DNA of 64,000 nt, taken from the IMG/VR virus record IMGVR_UViG_3300029258_001507, positions 801 through 64,800 of that record; one strand, given 5' to 3'. Position 1 is the stretch's first letter, and the number at the start of each line of letters is the position of its first letter. The DNA is from a virus. Lineage: Duplodnaviria > Caudoviricetes. The notes beneath the pieces were generated by a model. That model searched no databases and was not told the origin of the DNA. It saw only the letters and a program-made list of their open reading frames with translations. Below are positions 35,814-35,936 of this stretch, piece after piece. The position numbers were made by a program, and so were the translations under genes.

Positions 35814-35936
35814 GAAGGGGATGCCGGCCGGGCCGCCTTGTGAACGACCCGACCGGCGGAGAGTAACTCTGGCGAGTGCTACACGGCTCGTTGCGTCCGT
35901 AGCTATTCTCGCCATGAGGCGTGCAGGACGCCTCCC
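35814..35936 (-). ncRNA. Putative Cas12f-type tracrRNA
   Basis: Hairpin GAGGCGU-CCUGC-ACGCCUC whose loop complements the repeat 3' end GCAGG; GGCGAG/CUCGCC stem; 12-bp G-U-containing hairpin; AUCCCCUUC partial anti-repeat. Confidence 0.7.

Follow-up and report, generated by a model that had tools for sequence, protein, structure and literature searches.

For Cas12f1, a long repeat:anti-repeat stem and a pseudoknot with a short duplex of 5-7 base pairs (bp) have been described (Jiao et al. 2024, PMC11246509), and the core of the AsCas12f1 guide comprises stem 1, stem 2, part of stem 3 and the repeat:anti-repeat duplex R:AR-2, the latter being coaxial with stem 1 (bioRxiv 10.1101/2023.07.03.547593). 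The same conserved core has been described for SpCas12f1 (PMC12255294), and the duplex of Cas12k contains a triple helix, not a pseudoknot (PMC11246509). Among natural nuclease-dead relatives, the dCas12f-sigma-E systems are reported to rely on single guide RNAs; a tracrRNA-like species was not detected for them, and most of them lack a CRISPR array (Hoffmann et al., Nature 2026, PMC13472631). The same publication describes a separate cluster of dead Cas12f proteins located near CRISPR arrays, with putative guide RNAs identified by covariance upstream of the CRISPR loci (Extended Data Fig. 1a,b); the named example of that cluster, from a Chitinophagaceae genome, targets an efflux promoter. Among the top results of a literature search, no paper on a trans-activating CRISPR RNA (tracrRNA) for a nuclease-dead Cas12f, or on the phage family considered here, was found. 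Here we describe an element of 123 nucleotides (nt) at positions 35814-35936 of a viral DNA stretch of 64,000 nt (IMG/VR record IMGVR_UViG_3300029258_001507; 'the window' denotes this entire stretch), which most probably (at roughly 0.8) encodes, on the minus strand, a compact tracrRNA serving the adjacent RuvC-dead, Cas12f-like protein.

The gene order on the minus strand is RNA, effector gene and CRISPR array, such that the RNA is encoded within the CRISPR-cas locus and outside of the array, on the same strand and at a distance of 1.6 kb from it. The intergenic region of 272 nt that harbors the RNA (36071-35800, minus strand) lies between a zinc-finger open reading frame (ORF) and an ORF of 530 amino acids (aa). 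The features to which we refer are as follows.

35934-35916, minus strand: stem 1, 7 bp (GAGGCGU at 35934-35928, loop CCUGC at 35927-35923, ACGCCUC at 35922-35916)

35913-35871, minus strand: stem 2, GGCGAG-AAUA-GCUACG...UGUAGC-A-CUCGCC

35868-35858, minus strand: anti-repeat AGUUACUCUCC, 11 nt, pairing with repeat nt 21-31 and thus providing the long repeat:anti-repeat duplex

35870-35860, minus strand: AGAG and CUCU strings, overlapping the true anti-repeat

35857-35823, minus strand: GC-rich hairpin of 15 bp with loop CACAA and four G-U pairs (counted by hand), at the position of a terminator, without a U tract

35822-35814, minus strand: AUCCCCUUC, more likely belonging to the untranslated 5' leader of the effector gene

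34207-35799, minus strand: effector gene, 530 aa, with Cas12f fold, RuvC-dead, without zinc ribbon and with a basic disordered tail

33138-34188, minus strand: CRISPR array with 16 repeats of 36 nt and 15 spacers of 15-39 nt

The fold predicted with RNAfold is strand-specific: the minus strand of the 123-nt stretch reaches -64.2 kcal/mol (z -4.65; 1 of 200 shuffles as good), compared with a z of -1.25 for the plus strand (22 of 200 shuffles as good). In the predicted minus-strand fold, stem 1, stem 2, a 3-bp version of a small hairpin and the 15-bp hairpin are formed. Stem 2 is composed of an outer helix (GGCGAG/CUCGCC), a conserved asymmetric internal loop (AAUA/A), an inner helix (GCUACG/UGUAGC) and an apical part that is conserved in sequence. 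Judged by conservation among related loci, the core of the RNA consists of stem 1, stem 2 and the 11-nt anti-repeat and amounts to about 80 nt; together with a 5' leader and a 3' hairpin, the RNA would be about 115-140 nt long.

Two metagenome contigs (L001 and L002) encode proteins that are about 30% identical to the effector and exhibit the same order of RNA, gene and array, and a viral contig (L003) belongs to the lineage of L002. The upstream regions of the window, L001 and L002 can be aligned, by eye and with MAFFT, from stem 1 to just past stem 2, and in these three hand-aligned sequences alone, 6 of 19 stem pairs have changed on both sides. A covariance model built from the three sequences with a structure made by hand yields a single match in the window's own genome (E 4.2e-24). 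An alignment of more distant family members led to six further viral loci (L014-L019), and in four of them (L015, L016, L017 and L018) the model identifies nine further copies scoring 65-84 bits, each of which directly precedes an effector gene or a CRISPR array. Of the remaining two, L014 ends at the contig edge just before the gene, and L019 is a different system. L016 carries four copies and L018 three. Both of these loci (L016 2201-6200 of a 364-kb viral contig; L018 1900-6280 of a 123-kb contig) hold several arrays and an apparent second effector gene, and the latter genes begin right after the copies at L016 4266-4351 and L018 4444-4529.

In the resulting alignment of 12 rows, 227 of 228 cells of the intramolecular stems are standard pairs, and 8 of the 19 pairs change on both sides, a number reached by none of 500 shuffles and to be compared with 0-2 in slid controls. 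Double-sided changes are present in five of the seven pairs of stem 1 across the 12 copies, and compensatory changes in three of the six pairs of the outer helix of stem 2, where all cells are paired. Since G-U pairs are likewise conserved (columns 42-57 in 12 of 12 rows, columns 40-59 in 10 of 12), the strand is fixed as the minus strand. The preliminary description of this stretch, which was based on the letters and ORFs alone, had proposed a tracrRNA-type RNA on the minus strand with stem 1 and stem 2 as given above. All strings quoted there are present at their minus-strand places, and both the strand-specific folding and the covariation across lineages bear out the RNA, its strand and, by the compensatory changes, stem 2. 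Of the checks suggested there, folding and covariation gave z -4.65, double-sided changes in 8 of 19 stem pairs and, as detailed in the following, in 7 of 16 positions at which tracrRNA and repeat pair.

The RNA possesses two segments complementary to the repeat. Firstly, the loop of stem 1 (CCUGC) is complementary to repeat nt 32-36 (GCAGG), which gives a short duplex. This pairing is kept in seven of seven lineages, being CCUGC:GCAGG in the window, CCUGC:GUAGG (with one G-U) in L001 and CCUGU:ACAGG in L002, and the fifth position of the duplex covaries, with C-G in the window and L001 and U-A in the five other lineages. Hence, the earlier proposal that the loop pairs with the invariant repeat end is supported by both complementarity and covariation, and the array orientation proposed along with it follows from that pairing. 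Secondly, the longest run complementary to the repeat in the entire 272-nt intergenic region is located directly 3' of stem 2, at the same place as in L001 and L002. In the window this run comprises 12 nt with two G-U pairs (against repeat nt 20-31), and the corresponding runs of L001 and L002, both against repeat nt 21-31, have a length of 11 nt each, one G-U being included in that of L002. The AGUUACUCUCC region likewise forms the most stable duplex of any 18-nt segment of the intergenic region, and when such segments are ranked by duplex energy with the repeats, the best 12 of 12 overlap the true anti-repeat.

With one copy per lineage set against its own repeat, pairs form in 93 of 100 cells between tracrRNA and repeat, and changes on both sides are seen at 7 of 16 positions, namely at 6 of 11 in the anti-repeat (six lineages) and at a single one in the loop. 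L015 is not included in the table for the anti-repeat because of a register shift of one base; eight consecutive positions pair once this shift is allowed for. When each RNA is confronted with all repeats, the cognate repeat is unbeaten by foreign ones in Watson-Crick pairs, ties included, in six of the seven lineages; in L018, the repeat of L017 gives 14 such pairs compared with 13 for the cognate one. In the array of the window, nt 22-26 and 29-36 do not vary among the 16 repeats, and it is these positions that pair with the RNA; nt 27-28 vary (GG, UG, GA, AA) and constitute an internal mismatch of the duplex in 11 of the 16 repeats. Apart from these four variants, the array of the window is heterogeneous in further respects: repeats nos. 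10 and 14 are strongly divergent, short spacers of 15, 17, 21 and 26 nt occur, and one spacer is present twice through a duplicated block of about 99 nt.

The protein encoded directly downstream of the RNA has no match in Pfam or NCBIfam, the OrfB_Zn_ribbon family included. PADLOC provides weak matches to Cas12u3 (6.1e-11) and Cas12f (2.3e-9), and a sequence search of the PDB retrieves Cas12f1 chains at 4.7e-5 and 1.1e-4. A three-homologue profile matches 588 cluster representatives at E <= 0.001 and 194 at <= 1e-30. We aligned the query with 35 of 150 listed matches (most of the leading entries and, further down, one in ten), and the resulting alignment of 36 proteins supported an AlphaFold2 model with a predicted local distance difference test score (pLDDT) of 85.6; a first model from three sequences (pLDDT 51) was unusable. 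The top Foldseek match of the model is AsCas12f (8j12, E 2.6e-18), followed by OsCas12f, SpCas12f1 and the solved dCas12f structure 9n9c (E 5.2e-12). The RuvC-I Asp aligns with V320 of the effector and the RuvC-II Glu with R421, and the chain ends in a basic tail before any zinc ribbon or RuvC-III. Among the 36 family members, Asp is present at columns 320/321 in none, Glu at column 421 in two, and a CxxC after the WPW/WDW motif in none. By its residues and predicted fold, the effector is thus Cas12f-derived and nuclease-dead by residue loss. The preliminary assignment to Cas12f holds with respect to the fold, not with respect to the RuvC catalytic residues and the zinc ribbon, which are absent; hence, the RNA supports 'Cas12f-derived' and not 'Cas12f nuclease'.

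Comparison with the AsCas12f1-type tracrRNA reveals likeness in the combination of a long duplex with a 5-bp duplex between a loop and the very end of the repeat, and in the placement of stem 1 and stem 2 at the 5' end of the RNA. As anticipated in the preliminary description, the layout with a long and a short repeat:anti-repeat duplex is the one described for Cas12f1 (PMC11246509); it is encountered here in sequence complementarity and covariation, and a pseudoknot would presumably result from it. The differences are likewise evident. The AsCas12f1 scaffold is reported to comprise 171 nt (10.1101/2023.07.03.547593), compared with the conserved core of about 80 nt found here, and its stems 3 and 4, the large coaxial helix, have no counterpart, as the core ends with the anti-repeat and a variable terminator hairpin follows. 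Moreover, the long duplex is limited to 11 bp, the RNA is located upstream of the gene, with several copies in relatives, and it resides on a phage-like contig beside a nuclease-dead effector.

A further tie to type V-F1 loci comes from a profile search of 401 genomes of the phylum of L004 (a Planctomycetaceae chromosome, see below), which gave two matches, L012 and L013. In L013 (Planctomycetota), the covariance model, at 21 bits and E 1.2e-4, has a match between a gene of 497 aa and an array, and this match has a CCUGC loop where the repeats end in GCAGG. The protein contains the full Asp/Glu/Asp triad and a zinc ribbon, and it matches AsCas12f at 1.2e-58 and PADLOC Cas12u3 at 1.5e-78. The RNA core is thereby tied to V-F1 loci by a search result, the match being weak and single. 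The locus itself (L013 705-2541, minus strand) is thus made up of an intact Cas12f1 gene of the AsCas12f kind, the tracr-like RNA and an array with four or more repeats.

With the dCas12f-sigma-E proteins, the effector shares the RuvC inactivation and the C-terminal truncation of a Cas12f homologue (PMC13472631; structure preprint 10.1101/2025.06.10.658880). In contrast to those systems, an array of 16 repeats and a tracrRNA are found here, and none of the 10 neighboring ORFs matches a sigma-factor family (Pfam-A, PHROGs). The CRISPR-associated dCas12f cluster (PMC13472631), compared by its text description only, differs from the present locus in that the latter has a phage setting and two RNA segments that pair with the repeat. 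TldR proteins and the omega-RNAs of TnpB provide another parallel, namely a nuclease-dead protein of the TnpB/Cas12 lineage, RNA-guided binding for repression and, for some of them, encoding by phages (10.1101/2023.11.30.569447; PMC13472631). TldR, however, employs one fused scaffold-guide RNA and no array, whereas here the guide is split into CRISPR RNA (crRNA) and tracrRNA. Finally, Cas12k and Cas12m are likewise type V effectors that bind, the RuvC domain of Cas12k being naturally inactivated and Cas12m blocking transcription, but they are different, larger proteins and weaker Foldseek matches to the effector (E about 1e-5).

Taken at face value, the features described above suggest the following mode of action. 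The RNA would start shortly before stem 1, and its CCUGC loop and 11-nt anti-repeat would together pair with the last 16 nt of the repeat (GGAGAGnnAUU plus GCAGG), giving rise to a long and a short repeat:anti-repeat duplex as described for Cas12f1. The dual guide would presumably be held by the adjacent Cas12f-like protein and, as that protein lacks the RuvC active site, the complex is expected to occupy matching DNA and to leave it uncut, which would provide the phage with a programmable repressor or roadblock.

Signals at the ends of the RNA vary among the lineages. The following features are located 5' of stem 1 in the window.

35936-35963, minus strand: probable promoter-proximal leader or 5' end region, as suggested by TACAGG (-10-like), GGAGACA and a hairpin

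35952-35936, minus strand: hairpin CAUGCC-AGUAG-GGCAUG within this 5' leader region

By eye, TACAGG and GGAGACA in the window and TACAAC and GGAGACA in L001 are at a like distance from stem 1, and TACAAT or TACAAC boxes precede the copies in L016 and L018; in L018, a scan for the promoter consensus places TTAACC-16-TACAAT in front of two of the three copies, with 13-16 nt between its end and the copy. On the 3' side, L001 and L015 possess terminator-like hairpins with a T run at the position of the window's 15-bp hairpin, which is absent in L002, L016, L017 and L018 (four of seven lineages), where the anti-repeat is directly followed by a U run. These promoter-like and terminator-like sites of the relatives lend indirect support to a discrete small RNA. 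Comparison of the lineages thus indicates that the 15-bp hairpin is a variable, terminator-like 3' element outside of the conserved core. The preliminary description had correctly recognized a hairpin with G-U pairs at this place, but as one of 12 bp; it has 15 pairs, four of them G-U, and by its position it is terminator-like and outside of the core. Read-through from the RNA into the effector gene is possible.

Several observations weigh against the interpretation as a tracrRNA. The 12-row alignment was fitted to the structure of the model, which favors that structure, and its rows represent seven lineages, several of them being near-identical copies. The 11-nt duplex has one mismatch in 11 of the 16 repeats. 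Considered for the window alone, the complementarity is within chance, as a run of at least 12 nt, G-U tolerated, occurs in 49 of 460 tiles of 272 nt; the significance of the repeat complementarity comes from the related loci. No sigma-70 promoter was matched in the window, and its 15-bp hairpin, lacking a U tract, is not called a terminator. With neither a U tract nor a called promoter in the window, the RNA may be a mere 5' leader of the effector messenger RNA (mRNA). The spacers have no significant match in the 2.6-Mb genome bin that holds the contig (best 14-17 nt, E >= 0.19), and the array has none among 50,697 phage records.

Among the alternatives, the one that survives best holds that the RNA acts mainly in cis, be it as a leader of the array or operon, as part of one long transcript folding on its own repeats, or in a long form that also guides autoregulation of the locus, and not as a free tracrRNA. 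RNA, gene and array are indeed on one strand with no terminator called between them in the window, and in L016 and L018 the RNA is found roughly 30 nt before the first repeat of arrays. The array of the window, however, starts 1.6 kb downstream, terminators follow the RNA in L001 and L015, and a guide-like match, at which no search was aimed, was not found; we regard a predominantly cis-acting form as improbable. Next in rank, and improbable as well, is the view of the structure as nothing but a 5' leader that works in cis on the effector mRNA, for example as an attenuator or an element of stability or translation, and does not act in trans on the array transcript. The position of the structure, with the start codon on the same strand 15-135 nt further downstream, would fit such a leader, the 15-bp hairpin without U tract could be its attenuator, and the missing call of a separate promoter in the window is in line with it. 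A pure leader would not need two segments that covary with the repeat, though, and it does not account for RNA copies residing directly before CRISPR arrays as well as genes in L016 and L018, nor for the terminators between RNA and gene in L001 and L015. A free tracrRNA, presumably transcribed separately, therefore remains the reading that we prefer.

The exact architecture put forward in the preliminary description, with an AGAG/CUCU hairpin, the GC-rich hairpin as a core element and AUCCCCUUC as the long anti-repeat, is very improbable. AUCCCCUUC and GAGAGGGAU do pair at eight of nine positions. GGGAU, however, is present in no more than 5 of the 16 repeats, and for each of the 16 the true anti-repeat gives a stronger duplex than AUCCCCUUC (mean -14.2 vs -9.0 kcal/mol). 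Moreover, AUCCCCUUC has no counterpart in the other lineages, such that this part of the proposal had to be abandoned. The small AGAG/CUCU hairpin fares no better: 72.9% of its cells are paired, no compensatory change is seen, 430 of 500 shuffles are as good, and slid controls score higher; lacking comparative support as a hairpin, the segment instead constitutes the true anti-repeat. The GC-rich hairpin, in turn, is absent in four of seven lineages. That the element is a chance GC-rich structure without RNA function can be virtually dismissed: the region is GC-rich and its complementarity to the repeat, taken in the window only, is within chance, but the z of -4.65, the 12 copies in seven lineages with compensatory changes and the single own-genome match at E 4.2e-24 speak against it.

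Other searches defined the reach of the RNA family. Searches for loci with a single protein as query, in genomes and viral contigs, gave no locus, and alignments of three and six sequences had no match in viral contigs. When 150 relatives of the window's genome were searched with the covariance model, four weak matches (19-24 bits, E 0.007-0.07 per genome) were obtained, none beside a homologous protein, and these were taken as chance. A DNA-pattern search with stem 2 retrieved L003, L004 and L005. The match in L005 lies inside a long ORF, without the stems, and was rejected as a chance match. In the Planctomycetaceae chromosome L004 (3400-3530), an orphan element matches in stem 2 only (34 bits), and downstream of it come a GCCUGCAGGC palindrome and a strong hairpin resembling a terminator; an effector homologue was not found within 4 kb of it or elsewhere in that genome. 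An Rfam scan of 32500-37500 (E <= 10) returned a spurious long non-coding RNA (E 2.5) as its sole match.

The contig, of which the window spans nearly all, has 64,472 nt and carries phage-like genes. The effector is surrounded by genes of phage replication and recombination, namely those for NinG, a 5'-3' exonuclease, an Erf/Rad52 annealing protein, a helicase and ParB (10 ORFs scanned), and cas1, cas2 and cas4 were not found among these 10 neighboring ORFs. Hence, the setting is that of a phage or prophage. Compared with phage records, the effector has as its only match a transposase-like gene of Bacillus phage Mgbh1 (21.7% identity). Upstream of the RNA lies one further gene.

36470-36072, minus strand: small zinc-finger ORF

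The genome bin holding the contig is 70% complete and comprises 2.6 Mb in 141 contigs, and genome sizes of 0.7-2.3 Mb prevail among the listed relatives; the contig may derive from a phage that was binned together with a host, or it may be misbinned. The RNA region is unchanged in DNA contigs of four runs, which has no bearing on expression. Just upstream of the RNA, a fragment resembling the 3' part of a transfer RNA (tRNA) is present (35988-35964, minus strand), consisting of a T-arm (GCCGG-UUCGAGU-CCGGC) and, after it, an acceptor-like strand of 7 nt. According to ARAGORN, the window has no tRNA, and comparison of the fragment with the tRNAs of the genome bin gave no match beyond 14 nt; the fragment could be the remnant of an attachment site. 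Elsewhere in the window, long tandem repeats are located at 18716-19087 (60-nt period x6.2), 20739-21286 (72-nt period x7.6) and 27117-27611 (a GCCATC-type hexamer tract). The gene 3' of the array (33051-32368, minus strand) and its counterpart in L003 (about 6140-5470, minus strand) both start Cys-rich when inspected by eye, which suggests conserved synteny past the CRISPR module.

The finding would be of relevance for our view of how dead Cas12f proteins are guided. The family described here keeps the array and a dual guide, in contrast to the single guides without tracrRNA reported, in the parts of that publication considered here, for natural dead Cas12f (PMC13472631). One may tentatively go further and speculate that a widespread and hitherto uncharacterized phage-borne family of dead Cas12f proteins exists that employs the smallest known tracrRNA of the Cas12f lineage (with its core of about 80 nt), that a copy with its own promoter precedes every effector gene and array, and that the systems act as programmable repressors of genes of the host or of rival phages and possibly in self-regulation of the locus; in its entirety, this extended scenario is possible and still doubtful. 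The RNA displays the apparently indispensable parts of a Cas12f1 guide, that is, stem 1 with the pseudoknot loop, stem 2 and a short anti-repeat, and it may serve as a natural template for very small DNA-binding guides. Finally, the locus would add a case of phages with CRISPR effectors that only bind, and what such phages silence becomes testable.
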